From sequence record OL770074.2: a DNA stretch of 64,000 bases. The stretch is one strand, 5' to 3'. Positions 5,481-61,311 of this stretch are shown here, piece after piece; the stretch's first letter is position 1, and each line of letters begins with the position of its first letter. Position numbers and translations under genes: made by a program. Below the pieces are notes generated by a model, which saw only the letters and a program-made list of their open reading frames with translations, was not told the DNA's origin and did not search any database. The DNA comes from Escherichia phage vB_EcoM-RPN187.

Positions 5481-5525
5481 GTTGTCTCCTCGTTATGAAG
5501 GTATTCTATCATCCGAAATCTAAAG

Positions 5526-5544
5526 CAAAAAGGGCCGAAGCCCT
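5526..5544 (-). terminator. intrinsic terminator-like hairpin (AGGGC-UUCG-GCCCU) followed by U-run on minus strand
   Basis: hairpin with cgaa/UUCG loop immediately after stop of ORF 5544..5969, A-run on plus. Confidence 0.5.
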
Positions 5545-5969
5545 TATTTAAATTTAATTTTCTGAAGTGCATCAATTGCAGCCAAACGCCCTTGTTCACT
5601 TTTAACTGTAATGACCACATCGCCTGATACGATCACCGAACCATCAACAAATTCTATAGAGCCTTTTTTGAAATCGACAGCTGTATCTGGTTCCGGAACT
5701 TCTTCAAAGAATTTAAATTCTGCACCATAAATCAGAATATCACCTTGCATACTATGAATAGTTCGGCCATAATCGCCTACGGCTTCTACAGCAATCACCG
5801 AAACGCCGTAACCAATCATCTCTTCCACAATAAAATCTTTGGACAATAAAGTAGTATGCAGATTAGTATTAAGACGTTTACCAGTCGTATTAAGCATTCT
5901 CAAGAAATTATCTTCTTGACCTTTGATAATACGATATTTCTTACCAACTTCAAAACCTTTAAAAGCCAT
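5544..5969 (-). CDS. hypothetical protein
   Basis: 141 aa ORF, ATG start. Confidence 0.55.
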   Translation of the reverse strand: MAFKGFEVGKKYRIIKGQEDNFLRMLNTTGKRLNTNLHTTLLSKDFIVEEMIGYGVSVIAVEAVGDYGRTIHSMQGDILIYGAEFKFFEEVPEPDTAVDFKKGSIEFVDGSVIVSGDVVITVKSEQGRLAAIDALQKIKFK

Positions 5970-5971
5970 AA

Positions 5972-6151
5972 TTAACCCTTCTTAAGTAAGTCGTAAAAAC
6001 CACCGTTCACATGTTTAGGAGCAGAAACCCGACGAGTAGACAGACGATGACATTCAGGGCAAACATCGGTTTCTCGTTCAGAAATCCTTTTAATTTTTTC
6101 ATATTCATGACCACAATCTTCAGATTGACATTTATAGTCGTATAACGGCAT
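5972..6151 (-). CDS. FmdB-family zinc-ribbon small protein (59 aa)
   Basis: my own translation MPLYDYKCQSEDCGHEYE...CPEC; below ORF-track cutoff; fits between neighbours with TAATAATG junction. Confidence 0.5.
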   Translation of the reverse strand: MPLYDYKCQSEDCGHEYEKIKRISERETDVCPECHRLSTRRVSAPKHVNGGFYDLLKKG

Positions 6152-6153
6152 TA

Positions 6154-6564
6154 TTATTCCTTAAAATGTGCTTTCAACATTTGATACAAAGACCATGCCT
6201 GGTCGTTATTTTCGATAGTAATCGTCATCACCGGAAATTCAGACAATTCGTCAAGTTCATCAGAATCTTGCTCTTCGGACGCTTGATATGGATTTTCAAC
6301 TTCATCAAAGAACTCTGCTTCATTCGTGGAGAGCCAGATAAAGTTTTCATCAAGGATATCACCACCTGTTGCGTATCCAACCGTGCCAGTAGATGTCACA
6401 ATTTTAGTAGGACGTCCGAGATGGTCAACATCTAAAATTTTAAAAGGTTCCATGCCAAGACGTCGTGCATAAATCCCATTATCAGTGTGGTCTTTAATAA
6501 ACTCTTCTTGGGCACGTTTATCTATAAATTGGTACCATGAGTTAACTCGGAATTTATTAGCCAT
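6154..6564 (-). CDS. hypothetical acidic protein
   Basis: ORF-track start is TTG; first ATG (MANKFRV) has SD AAGGAAA. Confidence 0.55.
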
Positions 6565-6791
6565 TAGTAAGTTTCCTTCCAATAAGTTGTACCATTTTCA
6601 GTGATTTCACGGAAGATACCATAGATAGGCATTTCATCACCGAGTTTTTCGTAAACGTAAACCACTTCAGTGTAGCATAAAAATTCTGTCCAGTTTTTCT
6701 GTACAACAACTAAATCAGGATTAAACAGAACATCTTCAAACTCATCGATGTTTGAATCAGTAGTTACATTTTTAATGATTTGGCGTTTCAT
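6564..6791 (-). CDS. hypothetical protein (75 aa)
   Basis: ORF-track N-terminus translates the promoter cassette; ATG (MKRQII) with SD GAGGAG chosen. Confidence 0.5.
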
Positions 6792-6819
6792 AATATTCTC
6801 CTCTTGTTTTGATAGGTCT

Positions 6820-6849
6820 ATAGTATCATAGGCCATAGTTGTTGTACAT
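6820..6849 (-). promoter_or_regulatory. early-type promoter cassette, variant -35 TGTACA, -10 TACTAT
   Basis: member of gataggtctata repeat family upstream of gene start. Confidence 0.4.
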
Positions 6850-7373
6850 CATTTTAGCAAAATAAAATCAACTTGTTCTGCCAATGAACGTCTGAACATT
6901 AATTGACAACTTCCGAGGATGAAATCAGGTGCTTCATAGACCGCGATGTAGTATCCTTTAGCTTTCAAGAGTTCAACATCCACCTGGTCATCAAACCATG
7001 CATAAACCGCGTCAACACTTTCAAATCCAAAATAGAACCCTTTAGCCCAATCTTCACTCAATTCAAATGTTTGCTCAATTCTATAGTATCTTAAGATATT
7101 TTGTTCAAGGAGTTTGTCTTCATTTACTGTAGGACGATTAGGGACATTGTAGTTGTCGCCGTGATGGTAGAAGTTACCTGAGAGTATTCCATGCTTATCA
7201 AGGAACTCCCATGTTTCTTCAGAGTTGTCGGTGCCCGACCAACCGTATGGCGAACGAGGTTCTTTATTCCAAGAGGTTTCCCAAATTCTGACGGCTTTAC
7301 CATCTTCGATAGCAATTCCTGGTAATGATTCACGTTGAGTACAAAAACTACGTTCTACGCGGTAAACTAACAT
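6849..7373 (-). CDS. hypothetical protein
   Basis: 174 aa, ATG start. Confidence 0.55.
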   Translation of the reverse strand: MLVYRVERSFCTQRESLPGIAIEDGKAVRIWETSWNKEPRSPYGWSGTDNSEETWEFLDKHGILSGNFYHHGDNYNVPNRPTVNEDKLLEQNILRYYRIEQTFELSEDWAKGFYFGFESVDAVYAWFDDQVDVELLKAKGYYIAVYEAPDFILGSCQLMFRRSLAEQVDFILLK

Positions 7374-7398
7374 ATTATTCTCCTCTGGTTGTTATGGT

Positions 7399-7427
7399 TA
7401 TAATATCAAAACCAGAGGAGAAGTAAA
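7399..7427 (-). promoter_or_regulatory. early promoter cassette: -35 GTTTAC, 17-nt spacer, -10 TATTAT; flanked by 9-bp inverted repeat overlapping the SD
   Basis: read on minus strand; arms cctctggtt 7381-7389 and aaccagagg 7410-7418. Confidence 0.6.
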
Positions 7428-7432
7428 CAACT

Positions 7433-7852
7433 TTATGCGAAAGCAGCTGGGCTATATTTTTTAATTTGGAATTCAGGAACTACCATGAACTGACCAGCGA
7501 AAACGATGTTATAAAGCTTAACACCATCTTCTACCCAACGGTCGCTAATAAATCCGGCGATTTGCTTAGTTTTCCACGGTGTTCCATCAGTTGCCGCAGC
7601 AATAGTGAATTCATGGTCTTTTTCAACAGAAACTGATCTGCATAGTCCCCATTTGAATGCTTTTTCTTCCGGTTCAATGAATTGGCTTTTAACATAACCA
7701 ATGTTACCATCGGCGTCACGAACTTTAACTTCGTTACGTCCAAAAACCGGATCACTCACAGAAAGAACTTCAACCAACTTCCCGGCAACTTTAGAGCGAG
7801 AAGCAACAGATACATATACGTAATCACCTGTAGAGAGATTTACAATATTCAT
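7433..7852 (-). CDS. hypothetical protein, paralog of 7862..8317
   Basis: 139 aa; shares SRSK.AG.LVEV and GFISD.WVEDG.KLYNIVF motifs with neighbour. Confidence 0.55.
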   Translation of the reverse strand: MNIVNLSTGDYVYVSVASRSKVAGKLVEVLSVSDPVFGRNEVKVRDADGNIGYVKSQFIEPEEKAFKWGLCRSVSVEKDHEFTIAAATDGTPWKTKQIAGFISDRWVEDGVKLYNIVFAGQFMVVPEFQIKKYSPAAFA

Positions 7853-7861
7853 AATAATTCC

Positions 7862-8317
7862 TTAAGCTTTACGAGGAGACACATAACGAGTGATTTCAGA
7901 TTCTTTAACAACTCGGAAGTCACCTAAGAATACGATATTGTATAACTTTTCGCCATCTTCAACCCATTGGTCACTAATGAAGCCACACATAGTATCAGTT
8001 TTGCTTGGATAACCGTATTCATCGATGAAGTCAAATTCTTTATCAGTCTGGAATTCAACACCTTTACAAAGCTCCCATTTGAACTGTACATTAGGTTCAG
8101 TAGAAGAAAAATGAGCGCTCACACGAGTTTCCAGGAATTTAGGACTTACGTAAGCGTACTGAGTATCCTGACGTCCAAAACTAGGAACGATTCGAACTTT
8201 AACTTCTTTAATGCGTCCCATGCCATTTGTGCGAAGTCCGACAACTTCAACCAGACGACCTGCGGCTTTAGACCGGGATGCAGTTGATACACGCTTAATT
8301 TCACCAATAGTAATCAT
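7862..8317 (-). CDS. hypothetical protein, paralog of 7433..7852
   Basis: start set to MITIGEIKRV (aligns with paralog); ORF-track N-terminus MEYNEF is the TATAAT promoter region. Confidence 0.55.
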   Translation of the reverse strand: MITIGEIKRVSTASRSKAAGRLVEVVGLRTNGMGRIKEVKVRIVPSFGRQDTQYAYVSPKFLETRVSAHFSSTEPNVQFKWELCKGVEFQTDKEFDFIDEYGYPSKTDTMCGFISDQWVEDGEKLYNIVFLGDFRVVKESEITRYVSPRKA

Positions 8318-8347
8318 AATTTTTCTCTCTTTGTTTAAGTTGAATTC

Positions 8348-8377
8348 ATTATACTCCATCCATCCATGGATGTAAAC
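8348..8377 (-). promoter_or_regulatory. early promoter: -35 GTTTAC, 18-nt spacer containing CCATGG palindrome, -10 TATAAT
   Basis: minus-strand read upstream of 7862..8317. Confidence 0.55.
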
Positions 8378-8382
8378 TGGTT

Positions 8383-9060
8383 TTATCGCTGTTTTACACT
8401 TAACGGGTCAGGATTTTCAGGGACATCTTCAAGACCAAGCGCATAACGCTGAGCATATTTTAACATCAAAATATCTTTAGCACAATCATGAATACTATCA
8501 TGGGCAACGAATCCTTTTAGCGTACCCATCGGTAATGGACACATACTTAATCCTCGTGTCAACGAGTAAGCTTCGATTGCCGTACGAATATCGCGTTGAG
8601 CCCAGAATTTAACCGGTTCTAATTTATCAGTATCAATATCTGGTTCAAGAACACCTTCATCACGATAGAGGTCACGAATCAAATCGACCAAGATCGGGAA
8701 GTCAAAGCTCATACCACGGCACCACATCTGTGATTTCCATTGGTCAACTTTATTAGCTCGGCAATAGTCTAAAAAGATTTTAATGCCTTCAAGCGTAGTG
8801 ACATCGTCTTCAGACGGAGCCAAGTTTTTACGTGCTTCAGCCGATTGTTCTTTCCACCATTTCATAGTGGATTTAGCGAAAACTCGCTTCCCTTTCTGAG
8901 AAGCTAAATTAAATTTAATTCGCTTACCTCGTTGAACAAGTTCTTCAAATGATTCAACAACTTCAGGGTCGGAATTATATGCAATAACCGCAAGGTCAAT
9001 AACAGCCGCTTTTGATGTATTGCCGAATGTTTCAAAATCTATAATAACATCAGTGCTCAT
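8383..9060 (-). CDS. dexA: exonuclease A (DEDD 3'-5' exonuclease)
   Basis: 225 aa; N-terminal IIDFETFG exo motif; T4 dexA position and size. Confidence 0.8.
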   Translation of the reverse strand: MSTDVIIDFETFGNTSKAAVIDLAVIAYNSDPEVVESFEELVQRGKRIKFNLASQKGKRVFAKSTMKWWKEQSAEARKNLAPSEDDVTTLEGIKIFLDYCRANKVDQWKSQMWCRGMSFDFPILVDLIRDLYRDEGVLEPDIDTDKLEPVKFWAQRDIRTAIEAYSLTRGLSMCPLPMGTLKGFVAHDSIHDCAKDILMLKYAQRYALGLEDVPENPDPLSVKQR

Positions 9061-9069
9061 AATTTTCTC

Positions 9070-10383
9070 TCAAATAAAATGGACGTCAAACCGGCCACGA
9101 GTTGTGCCGACATACAATAACTGTTTAGCTAATTCTGAATCGGCATAATGGATACACGGTGTATAAACAAAGGCCGTGTCAACAGACATACCCTGGGCCT
9201 TATGGAAGGTTGATACTGGTAGTGCCTTCACCTTAGTGAACATACGTTTAGCATCCCAGAATTCGCTCCATGGAGCTTTACCACCTTTATTCCAAAATTT
9301 GTATGTTTCTGCGGCCTTAGCCAAAAACAAATTGAATTTATAAAGCTCTTCTTCAGAAGAAATAACCTTTATATCTTCGCGGATGTATTCTTCATCATCC
9401 CCATATGTTTCTACTGTAAGATTCCAGTATCGTATCATATATTCGCCTGAAACACCACGTGCTTTAACGAATGTAGACGTTTCTACAGCATCTCGAATAC
9501 GAACGAATTGGCCGTTATTGAAAAGCATTTCGGTCATATTTTTACCATCTAGCTTATATGTCTTAGTAAATGGCTCTTGTAGAACAATGACTTCGTCTTT
9601 AATAAATGGTTTTTCTGTTTCAAGAAGTTTTCGGCGAATAATTGAATTTAACTTGTCCACCGACTTATTTGTGAATGCCATCATTCGATTTTCGAAAAGG
9701 TCTTCAGGAGTTTTAACGACGTTAAAATAGTTCATCATATACGATTTAAGGTCTGTATATCCGTGAACACCATGTCCATCAACTACTTTATCGTAAATCC
9801 ATTTGCCATTACGAATATCAGTCGCAACATCAATAATTGGTGCATTGCTACGTTTAACTTCTGTAAGGTTGCATTGCACGAAGTCTTTGTGAGTGAAGAA
9901 AGGACTTAGATACGCAGTTGATTCGCCTGGGTCTACCGGACGAATCTGGCATCGGTCGCCGATTCCAATTACTGTACACCATTTAGGGATACTAGCTAAC
10001 ATTATTTTAAACAGAGAACGGTCGCACATTGACGCTTCATCAAATAACAGTACACGGCACAAGGCTAAGTCTGGAACCTTTTTCTGTTCAAACAATACGT
10101 TTTCTTCGTATGTAGTTGGGTTGATTTTAAGAATGCTATGAATAGTCGATGCTTCTTGACCCGCAAGTTTGCTTAGAACCTTTTTAGCAGCATGTGTAGG
10201 GGCTGCTAAAATAATACCTGATTCTCCAGAAGAAATAAGGGCTTCAACGATGAATCTAGTAAGGGTTGTTTTACCTGTACCAGCAGGCCCATTAATAGTT
10301 ACGTGATGTTTCTTTTCTTTAATAGCGTTCATAACAACGTTGAAGGCGTTTTTCTGGCCTTCAGTCAAATCATCAAATGTCAT
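9070..10383 (-). CDS. dda: Dda DNA helicase (SF1)
   Basis: 437 aa; Walker A GPAGTGKTT; T4 Dda size and position. Confidence 0.9.
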   Translation of the reverse strand: MTFDDLTEGQKNAFNVVMNAIKEKKHHVTINGPAGTGKTTLTRFIVEALISSGESGIILAAPTHAAKKVLSKLAGQEASTIHSILKINPTTYEENVLFEQKKVPDLALCRVLLFDEASMCDRSLFKIMLASIPKWCTVIGIGDRCQIRPVDPGESTAYLSPFFTHKDFVQCNLTEVKRSNAPIIDVATDIRNGKWIYDKVVDGHGVHGYTDLKSYMMNYFNVVKTPEDLFENRMMAFTNKSVDKLNSIIRRKLLETEKPFIKDEVIVLQEPFTKTYKLDGKNMTEMLFNNGQFVRIRDAVETSTFVKARGVSGEYMIRYWNLTVETYGDDEEYIREDIKVISSEEELYKFNLFLAKAAETYKFWNKGGKAPWSEFWDAKRMFTKVKALPVSTFHKAQGMSVDTAFVYTPCIHYADSELAKQLLYVGTTRGRFDVHFI

Positions 10384-19204: not shown

Positions 19205-19518
19205 ATTTCCTCGCAAAATGCCCATTCAGCGTGATAAACTGTAGCACCTTTAGTATTATTCATTTGAACTACGTCTACCGGAGAAATTACTCGATAGAGA
19301 CGTGGTTCACCTCCATAAGAGCGTGCTGCTCGTCCTGCATAAATCTTTGCTAAACCGATATCTTCAGTAAAGAATACACGATCCAAGTTTTTCTTACGTC
19401 CTGTTTCAGACAGAACTCCTGTTTCCTCAGGAGGACAAAGCATGTTTTCGATGTTAGCTGAACTACTTGAACCGTGATAAAAAATCTTAAATTCTGCTTT
19501 ACAATCGATGGTTTTCAT
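19201..19518 (-). CDS. hypothetical protein
   Basis: 105 aa, ATG, SD GGAG inside cassette stem. Confidence 0.5.
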   Translation of the reverse strand: MKTIDCKAEFKIFYHGSSSSANIENMLCPPEETGVLSETGRKKNLDRVFFTEDIGLAKIYAGRAARSYGGEPRLYRVISPVDVVQMNNTKGATVYHAEWAFCEEI

Positions 19519-19544
19519 TTTGTTCTCCAGTAGTTGATAGGTCT

Positions 19545-19573
19545 ATAATAACACAACTACTGGAGAAGTAAAC
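19545..19573 (-). promoter_or_regulatory. early promoter cassette: -35 GTTTAC, 17 nt, -10 TATTAT, flanked by 12-bp perfect inverted repeat containing the SD
   Basis: arms ctccagtagttg 19525-19536 and caactactggag 19554-19565. Confidence 0.6.
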
Positions 19574-19948
19574 TTAAAAATGTAATTTAGATATATCTGC
19601 GTTGATTTCGTTTTGGTTTGCGTCATATGCAATTAAACGAACCGCTTTAGATGGGTCATTCAATGCATAGAAATGATGGAACATTGCTCGAACGATATCA
19701 CCATTTACGAGTTTTACCTGGATAGGAGAACCTTTTTCGAGTTGGAAATGTTCATAAGCTTTGATGGTTCGCAGATAATCAAGTTTTTGATTTCCGGCTC
19801 CAACAATTTGTACGATACGTTTGCCCATGTTTTCCATACGAGATACAATAGTTTTAGGAGCAAGAATAACGTAGGTTGCCAGCGGAGAAACTACTTCAAC
19901 AGTTGTGTTTTCGGTGATTGCAGTAAAAATTGCTTGAGACATATTCAT
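19574..19948 (-). CDS. hypothetical protein
   Basis: 124 aa, ATG, SD GAGGAAAA. Confidence 0.5.
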   Translation of the reverse strand: MNMSQAIFTAITENTTVEVVSPLATYVILAPKTIVSRMENMGKRIVQIVGAGNQKLDYLRTIKAYEHFQLEKGSPIQVKLVNGDIVRAMFHHFYALNDPSKAVRLIAYDANQNEINADISKLHF

Positions 19949-20036: not shown

Positions 20037-21479
20037 TTAAAATTTTAACTCATTGGCTAAGCTATCTAGGTCAGCACGTGTTGTTTTGGCTTTACCTACG
20101 CGTTCCGTACGATTCATCTCTGCCTGACGCATCTGAGCACCTGCGTTTTCATTTACTGTGTTAGGTGTGTTCATGCCTTCTTGCTCAATCTCAACCCATT
20201 TCTGGTTGCCTTTACGTACACCCATCAGGAATTTATTCCACTTATTCTTATCACCGTATCGTGATTTGATTTGTTTGATAAGTTGTTGTTCAGCTTGTGC
20301 AAGTTCTTCAGTTTCAATTACGGCCAACATGAAATCTGCCGTTGCTGGTAAACCTGCTGATTCTGCAATATCGCTCATGTTCATATCCGAAGCATCCCAT
20401 GCTGCACGTCCTACTTGAGCTGCAGTCCATAGAACTGTTTCAGATTCTACTGCTAATGCACGAAGTTCTTCTGCGATAGCTTTAACTAATGTGTAACTAT
20501 TTTCAGTGTAAACTCTGATACGACAAGACCCACAAATACCTAAGTAATCAACCATGATTACAGATGGCACAAAGTTCTTCTTGAGTTTCAATTCATTAAG
20601 CAATGCACGGAATGTATTAGCATTAGCTCCACCAGTAGGATACTGTTTAACTACTAAACGTCCTAATGTAGATTTTGAACGCCATTTTTCCATCTTGGCT
20701 TTATATTCAGCATAAGATACGTTACCATCATCAATATCATCAAGCGATACGTCAAGCATGTTTGCATCTATACGCTTAGCGCAAACTTCTTCGGCCATTT
20801 CCATAGAAATATAAAGAACATTATGACCTGTTTGAAGATAATCTGCAGCAAGTGAACAAAGGCCTAAAGATTTACCAACGTTAACACCAGCCATTAAAAC
20901 ATTCAGTGTACCGGTTTCAGCACCACCTTTAGTGATTTTATTCAGAATGTTTAATTTGAACGGGACCTTACGTGCTTTGTTCAGATAAGAAAGCCAGCGG
21001 GCTTCGTAGTCTTCCATCCAGTCATGTCCAACATAACTATCAAACGAAATTGAAAGTGCTTGACGCATAATATCAGGAATAGCTCCTACGTCAGGCATTT
21101 TCTTGTTACGTTGTTCTGGAGGTAGTTCAGCATTAGACTGAATCTCAATGATTTTGGACGTAGCGTTATACATCGCTTTTTGCTGGACATATTTCTCAGT
21201 TTCTTTAACCAACCATTCGTGGTCTTCAGGAGTATCAGCCAATTTTTCAATTAAGTCTGAAGTTCCTTTATATTCGGCTTCAGTTAAAGAACTGTTATCT
21301 AAAGCCACCTTTAACGCATTGATAGATGGCATTGCATTATATTCGTTAACGTGGCTCTTTATAATTTTAAAGACGTTTTTTGCCGGTCCACGCTCAAAAT
21401 ACTCAGAATCCATATAAGGCCAGACCTTAGAAAAATAAGCCTGGTCATATACTAGATGAGACAAAATAATTTCTACCAC
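20037..21479 (-). CDS. 41: replicative DNA helicase gp41 (DnaB-like)
   Basis: 480 aa; Walker A GVNVGKS; GTG start preceded by SD AAGGAG; MVEIILSHL matches recalled T4 gp41. Confidence 0.9.
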   Translation of the reverse strand: MVEIILSHLVYDQAYFSKVWPYMDSEYFERGPAKNVFKIIKSHVNEYNAMPSINALKVALDNSSLTEAEYKGTSDLIEKLADTPEDHEWLVKETEKYVQQKAMYNATSKIIEIQSNAELPPEQRNKKMPDVGAIPDIMRQALSISFDSYVGHDWMEDYEARWLSYLNKARKVPFKLNILNKITKGGAETGTLNVLMAGVNVGKSLGLCSLAADYLQTGHNVLYISMEMAEEVCAKRIDANMLDVSLDDIDDGNVSYAEYKAKMEKWRSKSTLGRLVVKQYPTGGANANTFRALLNELKLKKNFVPSVIMVDYLGICGSCRIRVYTENSYTLVKAIAEELRALAVESETVLWTAAQVGRAAWDASDMNMSDIAESAGLPATADFMLAVIETEELAQAEQQLIKQIKSRYGDKNKWNKFLMGVRKGNQKWVEIEQEGMNTPNTVNENAGAQMRQAEMNRTERVGKAKTTRADLDSLANELKF

Positions 21480-41484: not shown

Positions 41485-41550
41485 ATTATTTTCCTCGGTT
41501 ATTTTATTATCCAATGAGAGCATTATACTCTGCTCTCAAGAGTTTGTGCA

Positions 41551-41790
41551 TTATTCCGTGATAAGATAATGTAAATAGTTTGCTTGACGAACACTGATAT
41601 CAACACCCATATCAAAGATACCTTTATAGAACGGGTATTTGTTTTCAGTAGAATCTAGACTAAAAGCCTTTCCACCACAACTAACGGTAATAGCATCAGT
41701 TAAAGTGTCATATACAAACTTAATAGTTGAGCCATTCACTACGACTTCAAGACGTTTTTTCGATGTAATAACGTCTAATTCTTGTTCCAT
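41551..41790 (-). CDS. hypothetical small protein
   Basis: 79 aa, ATG, SD GAGGAAA. Confidence 0.5.
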   Translation of the reverse strand: MEQELDVITSKKRLEVVVNGSTIKFVYDTLTDAITVSCGGKAFSLDSTENKYPFYKGIFDMGVDISVRQANYLHYLITE

Positions 41791-41853
41791 GATATTTTCC
41801 TCATTTTAAGACGATAGGAAGATAATAACACGTCTTCCTATCGTTGTACATTA

Positions 41854-49810: not shown

Positions 49811-49840
49811 ATTATACTCCAACCATCCTTGGTTGTAAAC
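49811..49840 (-). promoter_or_regulatory. early promoter: -35 GTTTAC, 18-nt spacer with small hairpin, -10 TATAAT
   Basis: minus-strand read; near-identical copy at 50804..50831. Confidence 0.55.
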
Positions 49841-50803: not shown

Positions 50804-50831
50804 ATTATACTCCAACCATCCTTGGTTGTAC
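50804..50831 (-). promoter_or_regulatory. early promoter, variant -35 GTACAA, -10 TATAAT
   Basis: near-identical to cassette at 49811..49840. Confidence 0.45.
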
Positions 50832-53921: not shown

Positions 53922-53950
53922 ATAATAACATGTTTAAAGCAAAAGTAAAC
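53922..53950 (-). promoter_or_regulatory. early promoter: -35 GTTTAC, 17 nt, -10 TATTAT
   Basis: minus-strand read. Confidence 0.55.
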
Positions 53951-53952
53951 AA

Positions 53953-54171
53953 TTATTTGCGACGAGATTTTTTGGTAAGAGGTTGAAAGAACACTGCTTT
54001 ACCTGCTGGGGTTAAGGTGACTCGTAACGCATTACCGATTCCCAAGGATGCTTTAACTAGACCTTTAGCTTTCAGTTCACCGAATGCTTGACGTTGGTCT
54101 GCATCACGAGTGTTAACCATAAGACCTTTATCACCAGCTTCACGAATCATTTCTAACATTTTGGTTTTCAT
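53953..54171 (-). CDS. hypothetical small basic protein (72 aa)
   Basis: ATG (MKTKMLEM) with SD GAGGAG; track N-terminus is translated cassette (IDLSKQEEN). Confidence 0.5.
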   Translation of the reverse strand: MKTKMLEMIREAGDKGLMVNTRDADQRQAFGELKAKGLVKASLGIGNALRVTLTPAGKAVFFQPLTKKSRRK

Positions 54172-54199
54172 TTTGTTCTCCTCTTGTTTTGATAGGTCT

Positions 54200-54227
54200 A
54201 TAATAACATATCCTAAAAGCATGTACA
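54200..54227 (-). promoter_or_regulatory. early promoter, variant -35 TGTACA, -10 TATTAT
   Basis: gataggtctataata core. Confidence 0.45.
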
Positions 54228-54280
54228 CTACTTTTTTAAAAATATTTTAACCCCCTAAAGGGACCCGAAGGTCCCCACAT

Positions 54281-54562
54281 TTACTTATCACACTTAGCAA
54301 CATAATTAGGCATATCACAGAATACGGAGCGAGTAACTACTCGGCCCTTTGACCATGCTTCAGTTGCTTGTCCGGCTGTGCTATTGATATAGCTTGATCT
54401 AATGTTCTCAATACCCTGAGAATGTGATGCATTTACCGAACCATTAGAAGACCCAGAAGACTGGTTACCACCAGCTCCTGCGCTACCGCTGGCTGCACCC
54501 GTGGTAGCACCGACAGAGAATGCCATCATTACTGCGAATAAACCAATTACTAATTTTTTCAT
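54281..54562 (-). CDS. hypothetical secreted Gly/Ser-rich small protein
   Basis: 93 aa; signal peptide MKKLVIGLFAVMMAFSVGA; SD GAGGT. Confidence 0.5.
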   Translation of the reverse strand: MKKLVIGLFAVMMAFSVGATTGAASGSAGAGGNQSSGSSNGSVNASHSQGIENIRSSYINSTAGQATEAWSKGRVVTRSVFCDMPNYVAKCDK

Positions 54563-54593
54563 ATTTACCTCAAGTTAATGGTTATTTATCTAC

Positions 54594-55583
54594 TTATTTA
54601 TAGTAAGAATTATGATTTTCGAGATAGACTTGTTCAAGGAAGTCATCCCAGAAACTCATATCTACTTTTTGTCGCATACCGTTCTTGGCAGCTTGTTCTG
54701 ACGCATGTTCAACTTGGTCAACGATATCTTCTAGGAATTCTTGTACAGTTTTAAACGTATGTTTACCAAGCTTAACATCGAGAATAAATGGAGCATCCTG
54801 AAGTGGGTAAACCAGGTCGCCGGTTTTATAAATTTCTAATAGTTGAAGTCCACCACGACATGCATGACTCAATGCTTTCCAGTCAATACCTTCGTTAGCT
54901 TCTGCCTTACGAGCACGTTCACCATAGTTCTCTTCCAGTTTAACCAGGATGGCATTGAACTCTTTATTGGTTAATGTGTCTTGGAATTTACGGTCTAACA
55001 GATTATAGAATGTTTGCTTACCTGTTTTCTCGTTTTCAGTTTCAACCCACGAAGCAAATTCACCTACAGGCAGAACATTCTTCATATGTGATAAACGAAT
55101 TACTGCACCATTATCAAAGTATTGTCCCCATTCATTAGAACGTTTAAGGGCTTGACGAAGAACAGCCAGTCGAGAACCCTTGACACCGTATTTAGAAGCT
55201 TGCTTACGGACATACCCTAAATAAGATTTCATGTTAGTGGTATAGAAACGAGACCTGTTATCTTGAATATACTTCCATACATCAGGCAAATCAGATTTAA
55301 CTACTAAACTTGGTGGAGTGTGAAGCATATCTAATGCGACGGTTTCACCATCCGCCGCTAATTTAAAGAAATATTTGAGACTATACAACTCATGGTCCAC
55401 GTCGTCTTTTGTGTTCTTAGAAGATGTGTTATTCGTGTTCTTGCTCATGTGTTCTTTAACGTTACCTGTCAAGATGTCACGAGCATGAGGGACATAAATT
55501 TCTTTAAAATCGACGTCAGATTCAGGAGTAGACGTTCCGTAAAGGTGGCTACCAAAGTAGCCTTTCATAATTGTTTTCATCAT
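54594..55583 (-). CDS. predicted nucleotidyltransferase (Pol-beta/minimal NTase fold)
   Basis: 329 aa; N-terminal GSHLYGTSTPESDVD fits GS-x(9-13)-DxD NTase signature. Confidence 0.55.
   Translation of the reverse strand: MMKTIMKGYFGSHLYGTSTPESDVDFKEIYVPHARDILTGNVKEHMSKNTNNTSSKNTKDDVDHELYSLKYFFKLAADGETVALDMLHTPPSLVVKSDLPDVWKYIQDNRSRFYTTNMKSYLGYVRKQASKYGVKGSRLAVLRQALKRSNEWGQYFDNGAVIRLSHMKNVLPVGEFASWVETENEKTGKQTFYNLLDRKFQDTLTNKEFNAILVKLEENYGERARKAEANEGIDWKALSHACRGGLQLLEIYKTGDLVYPLQDAPFILDVKLGKHTFKTVQEFLEDIVDQVEHASEQAAKNGMRQKVDMSFWDDFLEQVYLENHNSYYK
54595..54602 (-). promoter_or_regulatory. T4-type late promoter box TATAAATA (minus strand), about 33 nt upstream of 54281..54562 start
   Basis: exact match to late promoter consensus; overlaps 3' end of upstream gene. 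Confidence 0.45.
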
Positions 55584-57624: not shown

Positions 57625-57653
57625 ACTATAACACAACCTGAGGAGAAGTAAAC
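57625..57653 (-). promoter_or_regulatory. early promoter: -35 GTTTAC, 17 nt, -10 TATAGT; 7-bp inverted repeat includes the SD
   Basis: minus-strand read. Confidence 0.55.
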
Positions 57654-59027: not shown

Positions 59028-59230
59028 TTAGGTTCACCTTCTTTAACGAAATCTGGGTAAGGGTAAAATCCTGAGTAAAACCCTTCACCTTTATGATTGC
59101 TACAACCTTTGTTCGAACAGTAACACCAATAATCAAAATCACAAGCCATTTCGTCATTGCATAAAGCAAAAACTACAGGCCATTCGCATTTTTCGCATTT
59201 AGCACCTGTAAGAATTTTTGTTTGACTCAT
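59024..59230 (-). CDS. hypothetical Cys-rich small protein
   Basis: ATG (MSQTKIL) with SD AAGGTGA; CEKCEW...CYCSNKGC. Confidence 0.45.
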   Translation of the reverse strand: MSQTKILTGAKCEKCEWPVVFALCNDEMACDFDYWCYCSNKGCSNHKGEGFYSGFYPYPDFVKEGEPK

Positions 59231-59439
59231 AGCCATGTCACCTTTAAGCAATATTCTTCTACATGTTGTTTACGACCTTTCTTATCAATAAAGGTATATT
59301 CAACGAATGTTCCGATGTAGTCTTTATCTACATCATGTGGACTATTAATTGGACATTTGGTACGACAAATGCGTTCCCATTGACGAATAATTACTGCCTT
59401 ATTCTTTGGGTCATACGGATGTGGATAATGTATATTCAT
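59227..59439 (-). CDS. hypothetical small protein
   Basis: ATG (MNIHYPH) with SD GGGAA; ATGA overlaps both neighbours. Confidence 0.45.
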   Translation of the reverse strand: MNIHYPHPYDPKNKAVIIRQWERICRTKCPINSPHDVDKDYIGTFVEYTFIDKKGRKQHVEEYCLKVTWL

Positions 59440-59903
59440 AATAATGGTTCCCAATCAACAATCACAATTTCTAGTTTAGTGGAATACGTATCTAAAATCT
59501 CTTCGATGACATCCCAGTTTCCACCACCGATACCTGCACCAATTCTTGGCATGTAAATTACAGGCTTTGTTATCTTATTCTTTCCGAATTCATTTAATTC
59601 TATTATACAATTCATTAAAGCAAAGTACTCAAAATTAGGTCCAGGCTCAAACTGCGTATAAAGATTAAAGCAATAAGCTTTATGTGTCTTAAAATATTTT
59701 TCATAAACTGAATAAGTCCCGAGTTTAGACTCGTCTCCGAATTCAGTTTGAAGTTTATCGGCTTCTAGAATTTTTGGATAAGCCTTTGCTAATTGTCCTG
59801 CCACACCAGCGCCCATTGTATGAAAACAATTACACCCATGAGCAATATTATTACCTTTAGAAAACAGGGCGACAATATCGCCCTTGATATAGTTTTTAAT
59901 CAC
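59436..59903 (-). CDS. macro-domain protein (ADP-ribose binding/hydrolase fold); start uncertain, probably GTG
   Basis: NIAHGCNCFHTMGAGVAGQLA and RIGAGIGGG macro-domain motifs; no ATG upstream of domain; GTG with SD GAGGAC. Confidence 0.65.
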   Translation of the reverse strand: MIKNYIKGDIVALFSKGNNIAHGCNCFHTMGAGVAGQLAKAYPKILEADKLQTEFGDESKLGTYSVYEKYFKTHKAYCFNLYTQFEPGPNFEYFALMNCIIELNEFGKNKITKPVIYMPRIGAGIGGGNWDVIEEILDTYSTKLEIVIVDWEPLL

Positions 59904-60790: not shown

Positions 60791-61249
60791 CTAGATTTTA
60801 ATCACTGCTTTAGAAGCTTTTCCTGGTAGTCGTTTACTGTTAATAATAGCCATTCTGCATTGAAGAGTCTTCATTTTGAACGCTGGATTTTCGCGACAAA
60901 CTGTAAGTCCTAACCAAAGATTTCCGTCAGTTATTTCTAAACGGCCTGGGCGATATTCGACACCTTCGACAAAATCTTCATCAACATCTGGACGTGCCGG
61001 CATTGATAAAAATTCTGTAACTTCTTTAACATGATTTTTTACTTTACGAAATAATTCAAAAACGTAGTTCTCATCTATTTCTCTCTGGATGGCACGATCT
61101 AAGAGATGTTGAGAATACTTGATATGAAAGCCTGGTAGTCCAAGAGACTTTGCAGCATCTTTTATACCGGCATTTATTTTGCGGAACTCCGTTTCAAAGA
61201 TTCGACGGAGTTTATTACGGCGGATAAAAACGTCAGAATTGATAGTCAT
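60791..61249 (-). CDS. regB: endoribonuclease RegB
   Basis: 152 aa; closely matches recalled T4 RegB (FHIKYSQHLLDRAIQREIDE...RPGRLEITDGNLWLG). Confidence 0.85.
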   Translation of the reverse strand: MTINSDVFIRRNKLRRIFETEFRKINAGIKDAAKSLGLPGFHIKYSQHLLDRAIQREIDENYVFELFRKVKNHVKEVTEFLSMPARPDVDEDFVEGVEYRPGRLEITDGNLWLGLTVCRENPAFKMKTLQCRMAIINSKRLPGKASKAVIKI

Positions 61250-61277
61250 TTTTTATTTCTCCTCTAGTTGACAGGTC

Positions 61278-61306
61278 TATAGTAACACAACTAGAGGAGA
61301 AGTAAA
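61278..61306 (-). promoter_or_regulatory. early promoter cassette: -35 GTTTAC, 17 nt, -10 TACTAT, flanked by 9-bp inverted repeat CTCTAGTTG/CAACTAGAG next to regB SD
   Basis: minus-strand read. Confidence 0.6.
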
Positions 61307-61311
61307 CTACT

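Follow-up and report, generated by a model that had tools for sequence, protein, structure and literature searches.

Early promoters of phage T4 have the layout UP/-35/TGn/-10 (PMC2988021). In the Mosigvirus RB69, 57 early promoters are predicted, which carry GTTTAC at -35 and a C-rich segment at positions -3 to -1, and the distance between the MotA box and the -10 hexamer in published middle promoters is 11-13 nt (PMC1524935). PeSL elements, which are described in RB49/phi1, T4/PST and KVP40/nt-1, are repeated intergenic units formed by an early promoter, a stem-loop, a Shine-Dalgarno sequence (SD) and an ATG. The PeSL 'mini-circle' model predicts recombinant cassette junctions (PMC2839356, PMC4122927), and the recombination mechanism was shown experimentally in RB49/phi1 (PMC2839356). 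Another arrangement is found in the T4 genes e, soc, 49 and I-TevI, in which the SD is hidden by a hairpin in those transcripts alone that begin ahead of an internal late promoter, the 5' arm of the hairpin also being ahead of it (PMC3014915).

The window analysed here is the whole stretch of 64,000 nucleotides from Escherichia phage vB_EcoM-RPN187 (OL770074.2). In megablast searches with four segments, which together make up the whole window, it matches hundreds of T4-like coliphages, and the best matches are the Mosigvirus genomes AV112, NHEP10, PhAPEC2 and JS09, which are 97-99% identical. The window is assigned to the genus Mosigvirus of T4-like coliphages and, within the genome, to the early-gene arm, with its genes on the minus strand. 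This strand carries nearly all of them, and the gene order is that of the T4 early arm: rIIA, topoisomerase, goF, cef, motB.2, two motB-like genes, dexA, dda, srd and modA/B. The ORF track of the window is a mechanical longest-ORF list, and over-long starts are therefore expected in it. The PhAPEC2 annotation, from which 105 genes were placed on the window by sequence-anchored mapping, served as the reference for curated starts; it is itself fallible, with gp41 truncated in it. The comparison of relatives drew on an annotated phage collection, and a protein-seeded search of IMG/VR gave just 3-5 loci for each of the three focal genes (MotB-like, cef and RB69ORF102c-like, the last called ORF102c below).

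Predicted early promoters of the window

The elements upstream of the three focal genes are the following:

8348..8377, minus strand: predicted early (sigma-70) promoter of the MotB-like gene, (G)TTTACA at 8377/8376-8371, 17-nt spacer, TATAAT at 8353-8348
6820..6848, minus strand: predicted early promoter of cef, TGTACA at 6848-6843, 17-nt spacer, TACTAT at 6825-6820, kept across Mosigvirus relatives
54200..54227, minus strand: predicted early promoter of the ORF102c-like gene, TGTACA at 54227-54222, 16-nt spacer, TGn, TATTAT at 54205-54200, 9/12 matches
54249..54265, minus strand: terminator-like hairpin that directly precedes the ORF102c promoter

The promoter at 8376-8348 matches the consensus at 11 of 12 positions and is the best sigma-70 site within 5500-9500. 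The pattern TTTAC-N17-18-TAnnAT has 19 occurrences in the window, of which the coding (minus) strand carries 18, while shuffles give 3.17 +/- 1.75 matches on both strands together. About 24 intergenic cassettes are present, upstream of the motB-like, cef, motB.2, modA/B, imm, dmd-region and other genes. Their SD is purine-rich, and the SD-ATG follows 20-57 nt past the -10 box, and except in two cassettes this distance is 20-35 nt. TGn is found at 54200, 53922 and 7400 and is missing at 8348, where the region upstream of -35 (AAAACAGCGATAAAACC) is A-rich by eye.

The counterparts of these roughly 24 modules of early promoter, leader and SD are the early promoters of T4 and the PeSL cassettes of other T4-like phages. 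Like the T4 promoters and those predicted in RB69, the modules have GTTTAC(A/T) at -35, a spacer of 16-17 nt, a TAnnnT -10 box that is often accompanied by TGn, an upstream region that looks A-rich and a C-rich segment at -3 to -1 (AGACC), and they stand directly upstream of early-gene orthologs (motB, cef and others) in matching orientation. Unlike the T4 promoters, those of the window are predictions, the 8348 promoter has no TGn, and one subfamily is near-identical well past the polymerase contacts (27 nt in two promoters). A nearly identical spacer, ACA(A/T)CCA(A/T)GGATGG(T/A)TGGAGTATAAT (repeat family D11), is found at 8348-8376, 49811-49839 and 50804-50830 (minus strand), and the motB.1 promoter of PhAPEC2 is a member of the same subfamily.

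Some cassettes, notably 54200 and 53922, might be MotA-dependent middle promoters or dual early/middle promoters. The spacers of both contain TGCTTT(T/A), which is similar to the MotA box TGCTTtA and is kept in three relatives (L003, L011 and L015), but this box is 7-10 nt from the -10 hexamer, short of the 11-13 nt spacing that is published (PMC1524935), and these promoters also have a good -35 element, TGTACA or TTTACT, at a distance that suits sigma-70. A middle or dual role is considered improbable, and the cassettes are treated here as early promoters. The MotA-box-like sequences in question are TTTGCTTTA and ATGCTTTTA, in the spacers of 53922-53949 and 54200-54227 (minus strand), 2-4 nt nearer to -10 than in the published spacing; the two promoters may be dual early/middle ones.

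Probable over-long reading frames and their added N-termini

The original prediction was that N-terminal extensions given by ORF callers in this genome are translations of promoter cassettes. The reading frames concerned, as they stand in the mechanical ORF list, are:

7862..8359, minus strand: over-long MotB-like ORF, 165 aa, begins MEYNEFNLNKERKIMITIGE
6564..6836, minus strand: over-long cef ORF, 90 aa
53953..54228, minus strand: over-long RB69ORF102c-like ORF, 91 aa, GTG start, begins MYMLLGYVIIDLSKQEENKMKTK

The coding sequences that are very probably the true ones are:

7862..8317, minus strand: MotB-like CDS, 151 aa, starts MITIGEIK; PhAPEC2, phi25-307 and Sf24 annotate the same start
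6564..6791, minus strand: cef CDS, 75 aa, starts MKRQ; start as in PhAPEC2 and public records
53953..54171, minus strand: RB69ORF102c-like CDS, 72 aa; start as in the PhAPEC2 annotation, and the 72-aa form includes RB69ORF102c AAP76004.1

The extensions, very probably spurious, which make the difference between the two sets are:

8318..8359, minus strand: MotB-like extension, 14 codons (MEYNEFNLNKERKI), covering promoter spacer, -10, predicted transcription start, 5'UTR and SD-like GAGAG
6792..6836, minus strand: cef extension, 15 codons (MAYDTIDLSKQEENI), including the 27-mer at 6796-6822 and the SD GAGGAG at 6803-6798
54172..54228, minus strand: ORF102c extension, 19 codons (MYMLLGYVIIDLSKQEENK), including the 27-mer at 54176-54202 and the SD GAGGAG at 54183-54178

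All three extended starts are at or upstream of the -10 box. The start at 8359 and that at 6836 fall in the promoter spacer, the MotB-like ATG (8359-8357) being located between -35 and -10, and the start at 54228 falls in the -35 element, which is overlapped by the GTG that the ORF caller chose for ORF102c (54228-54226). A transcript that begins at the gene's own promoter cannot contain such a start, because the start codon is at or upstream of the -10 box. The peptide MEYNEF, which had been taken for a translated TATAAT box, is indeed encoded by ATG GAG TAT AAT GAA TTC, with TATAAT in frame as Y-N. The peptide IDLSKQEEN, reported to open the cef and ORF102c frames, is shared by the two as stated, but it is not at their very beginning, since it occupies residues 6-14 and 10-18. 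Its source is a 27-nt stretch, TATAGACCTATCAAAACAAGAGGAGAA, which is identical at 6796-6822 and 54176-54202, and which covers the last bases of the -10 box, then the predicted transcription start, the leader and the GAGGAG Shine-Dalgarno. The two promoters that carry it stand 47 kb apart, and this identity between the cef and ORF102c cassettes had 0 matches in 100 shuffles.

In the proposed mechanism, host sigma-70 RNA polymerase would read TTTACA-17 nt-TATAAT at 8348-8377, and transcription would begin about 7 nt past the -10 box, at a predicted position of about 8341. A leader of roughly 24 nt with the SD-like GAGAG, which is located at 8329-8325, would then lead to the MotB-like ATG at 8317. 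By accident, the reading frame is open backwards through leader and promoter to an ATG in the promoter spacer, and the longest-ORF rule therefore adds 14 residues to the MotB-like protein. The same accident is seen at cef (probable true start 6791) and at the RB69ORF102c-like gene (probable true start 54171). We infer promoter activity, the exact transcription start and the non-translation of the extensions from the sequence.

Relatives bear on whether the added residues could be made after all, as longer N-terminal isoforms from read-through transcripts begun at upstream promoters. At two of the genes the reading frame of the extension is lost in near-identical relatives with the protein unaltered: a 1-nt insertion in the leader frameshifts the cef extension in PhAPEC2, a phage 97% identical, and indels frameshift the ORF102c extension in a relative (L011) whose protein is 97% identical. 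In-frame stops are found upstream of a 69%-identical cef and of the cef of the Tequatrovirus Sf24 (loci L007 and Sf24), and the ORF102c extension is stopped in four more distant relatives (L012-L015). The MotB-like extension speaks for the isoforms in that it is in frame in all the Mosigvirus sequences examined and is broken only in the more distant Sf24 ortholog, in which the same N-terminus MITIGEIKRVS follows a different promoter and an in-frame stop, with no upstream start codon. The extended MotB-like start is also used in many database entries and is preferred by the gene callers of several databases, and in phages that contain motB.1 this ATG shares sequence with the preceding stop codon (TAATG), where some coupled initiation on a read-through mRNA could occur. 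However, about 7 positions in the 21-residue form of this extension differ between near-identical phages, in which the mature N-terminus hardly changes, and conserved extension residues coincide exactly with the -35, -10 and SD consensus.

Pairing with the anti-SD is also poor ahead of all three extended starts, with -0.3, -2.4 and +1.7 kcal/mol, against -9.1, -4.9 and -9.1 kcal/mol at the inner ATGs. In the case of ORF102c, the terminator-like hairpin at 54249..54265 would limit the read-through transcripts able to carry the extension. Real isoforms are considered very improbable. The start positions, the relatives and the SD pairing all support the original prediction for the three genes, and their extensions are with high probability promoter and leader DNA read by the longest-ORF rule and not protein.

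Cassette junctions and spacer-SD pairing

The cassettes of the window share with PeSLs the repeated intergenic organisation of early promoter, stem-loop, SD and ATG (PMC2839356, PMC4122927), the location of stems between -35 and -10 or overlapping -10, and the association of gene indels with cassettes, although this does not apply to all indels of the window. They differ from PeSLs in that the three focal cassettes have no significant stem, the fold z-scores of the MotB-like, cef and ORF102c cassettes being -0.5, +0.4 and +0.4 against shuffles, and in that the 3' arm of the other stems is often the SD itself, with no U-tract, unlike the terminators proposed for PeSLs. A text search of the two PeSL papers (PMC2839356, PMC4122927) found no mention of RB69 or of translation. 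The focal cassettes were considered as structured PeSLs, a candidate that was dropped with folds no better than those of shuffles. A palindrome in the 8348 spacer, CATCCATGGATG, was rejected as a hairpin, as it has only about 4 bp and reads CCAAGG in relatives.

In PhAPEC2, dexA and the MotB-like gene are separated by a further gene, motB.1, which has a similar promoter on either side; the window is without this 558-bp module. The comparison of window 8311-8377 with positions 8318-8941 of PhAPEC2 (NC_024794) gives the following identities:

Window promoter, upstream of -35: 48/50 to PmotB.1 and 17/50 to PmotB-like
Window promoter, downstream of -10: 17/30 to PmotB.1 and 28/30 to PmotB-like

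The crossover in the 8348 promoter is within a few nucleotides just past the -35 element. The promoter has the upstream half of PmotB.1 and the downstream half of PmotB-like, and 8335-8380 is therefore a recombinant junction of two cassettes, left by the loss of motB.1 if the event is taken to be a deletion and not an insertion. A junction of this kind is what the PeSL 'mini-circle' model leads one to expect. The phage phi25-307 carries the same motB.1 junction as the window. It is also without motB.2, and there (L020, MG589383, about 440-505) the junction joins cassettes 7400 and 6820: the -35 and spacer come from the motB.2 cassette, and the -10, leader and SD from that of cef. This motB.2 loss is read as a second cassette-to-cassette deletion.

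Four modules of about 300-430 bp are present in the window and absent from PhAPEC2:

41547-41844: 297-bp insertion with a cassette -35 region at either end, of which the downstream one is degraded (TGCACA)
63384-63810: module bounded by TATTTACATT repeats
54283-54596: module bounded by short microhomologies at gene ends
59035-59446: module bounded by short microhomologies at gene ends

Such junctions suggest that the cassettes might primarily be recombination modules of the PeSL type, whose similarity is kept by recombination and not by promoter constraint alone. The chimeric 8335-8380 promoter with its missing motB.1, the joining of cassettes 7400 and 6820 in phi25-307 and the 41547-41844 insertion between two -35 regions are in favour of this, as is the mechanism shown experimentally in RB49/phi1 (PMC2839356), but other indels relative to PhAPEC2 end in short gene-end microhomologies and not in cassettes, and it is we who infer the direction, deletion or insertion, of each event. 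Recombination as the primary role is given even chances; it is compatible with promoter function and is not an alternative to it. The cassettes behind the artefact would be strong early promoters, which drive host takeover, and also markers of gene-shuffling junctions.

In contrast to the focal cassettes, others contain stems. Cassettes 7400, 19545 and 61279 have a perfect stem in which TTCTCC... of the spacer pairs with ...GGAGAA of the SD, with the -10 box in the loop:

7371..7430, minus strand: motB.2 cassette, 13-bp stem of spacer TTCTCCTCTGGTT and SD region AACCAGAGGAGAA, -19.4 kcal/mol, z = -4.95
19516..19575, minus strand: stem cassette, 14-bp stem TTCTCCAGTAGTTG / CAACTACTGGAGAA, -21.5 kcal/mol, z = -5.34
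61247..61310, minus strand: stem cassette, 14-bp stem TTCTCCTCTAGTTG / CAACTAGAGGAGAA, -22.6 kcal/mol, z = -5.23

Stems between spacer and leader are also found in the cassettes whose -10 boxes end at 57625, 63467, 42950, 56910 and 41822, and 8 of 24 cassettes pair the spacer with their own leader at dG <= -12 kcal/mol. The mean pairing of spacer with own leader is -10.2 kcal/mol, compared with -7.75 +/- 0.52 kcal/mol after permutation, and 0 of 10,000 permutations reach it. In a scan of IMG/VR that fixed just TTTACTTCTCC and GGAGAA, the stem is lengthened by at least 5 bp in 17 of 27 promoter-context matches and in 1 of 96 others, and about nine different arm sequences, all perfectly complementary, are found among the matches. 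The spacer and SD arms covary across T4-like contigs of IMG/VR. The stems are followed by A-rich sequence with no T-run, and are therefore unlike intrinsic terminators; the terminator scan was empty at the 7400 cassette. Their identification as intrinsic terminators was rejected for the missing T-run, though they might terminate transcription without a U-tract.

The pairing of spacer with SD is well supported in itself. A broader proposal, which is tentative and has slightly less than even odds, is that a considerable share of the early promoters of T4-like phages carries an anti-Shine-Dalgarno, with the spacer as 5' arm and the SD as 3' arm of a 13-14 bp hairpin and with the -10 box and the transcription start in its loop; the putative function of these stems is the control of translation on read-through mRNAs. 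As in the T4 genes e, soc, 49 and I-TevI, the promoter of cassettes 7400, 19545 and 61279 is inside the hairpin, and the SD-covering stem can form in read-through transcripts only. In place of the late promoter of these genes there is an early sigma-70 promoter, whose -35/-10 spacer supplies the 5' arm, and the function is putative. A literature search on SD sequestration at early promoters found late-promoter cases only.

If the proposal is true, mRNAs from the own promoter would be without the 5' arm and freely translated, while on read-through mRNAs from upstream promoters the SD would be locked, and only ribosomes that finish the upstream gene, 6-10 nt ahead of the stem, could open it. A locked SD might also escape RegB cleavage at GGAG. 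The cassettes would then do at early promoters what the hairpins of T4 e, soc, 49 and I-TevI do at late ones, and the stem-loops of PeSLs would gain a translational rather than a terminator role. The covarying stems thus suggest a possible extra layer of translational control.

Start assignment in databases

Automated annotation of this genome had been expected to inflate N-termini, and the inflated forms are already found verbatim in GenBank and RefSeq entries. By exact-sequence look-up, the 165-aa MotB-like form of the window is present in GenBank as ULA52075.1 (RPN187), the 90-aa cef as WPK34487.1 (AV112), and the window's 89-aa form of ORF102c as ULA52159.1 (RPN187), WPK34570.1 (AV112) and others. 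The cef of HX01 has 90 aa in RefSeq and 75 aa in GenBank. Among listed cluster members, the extended form is found in 22 of 30 for MotB-like, 6 of 15 for cef and 4 of 15 for ORF102c. The 228-nt cef is annotated in seven sampled public records from different submitters, and its 75-aa product is found on 397 contigs; AV112, in which both cef and MotB-like are extended, annotates the 273-nt form.

Longer versions of the MotB-like protein are also present. In four of seven sampled records the gene starts at the ATG that overlaps the upstream stop codon, and the product begins MLYIQGWMEYNEFNLNKEREIM-ITIGEIK, where LY(I) translates the -35 element and YN the -10 box. Forms of 172 aa with MLYIQGWMEYNEF are found in mobillu, JQD51, AV112, AV117, PCM001, SA79RD, p000y, mogra, FP43 and the RefSeq entry of p000v, and the same MLYIQGWMEYNEF extension is present in DCP548 (186 aa) and LF82-9 (182 aa).

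A wider claim, that many starts of the ORF track are TTG or GTG codons upstream of a good SD-ATG, agrees with the curated starts: a longer upstream ORF exists for 40 of the 105 genes (16 with ATG, 15 with TTG and 9 with GTG), and the curated start has the stronger SD pairing in 35 of these 40. The -10 box is located inside the extension in seven genes (6820, 8348, 14349, 42247, 42950, 54200 and 57625). The reading of extended starts as false, highly probable for the three focal genes, fails as a general rule, since gp41 is correctly represented by its long ORF, which starts with GTG:

20037..21479, minus strand: gp41 helicase, GTG start, 480 aa, residues 1-480 align with residues 1-475 of T4 gp41 (PDB 8dtp_A)

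In this case SD pairing is stronger before the extended start (-8.7 kcal/mol, compared with -5.2 kcal/mol), and the RefSeq gp41 of PhAPEC2, which starts at an internal Met and has 458 aa, is truncated. This is the opposite error, and a blanket correction would therefore be wrong; starts need comparative or experimental support.

The artefact is similar to the over-extension known from gene callers that favour the longest ORF or overlap, in which an upstream in-frame ATG, GTG or TTG without a good SD beats the true SD-ATG. It differs from it in that the residues added here are translated promoter consensus, and therefore the same spurious peptide recurs in unrelated proteins and in many phages. 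The original finding is correct, and it is a known type of artefact on known elements, namely T4-type early promoters and PeSL-like cassettes. It matters mainly for curation, as spurious N-termini are present in GenBank, RefSeq and UniRef-type resources for many Mosigvirus genomes, and they propagate to cluster representatives, structure predictions and expression constructs.

A naming error was also observed for Cef, which is called 'cytochrome C biogenesis protein CcmE' in many NCBI assemblies of E. coli, Shigella and Salmonella. The contigs concerned, of about 170 kb, look like phage genomes inside bacterial assemblies, with a wrong product name.
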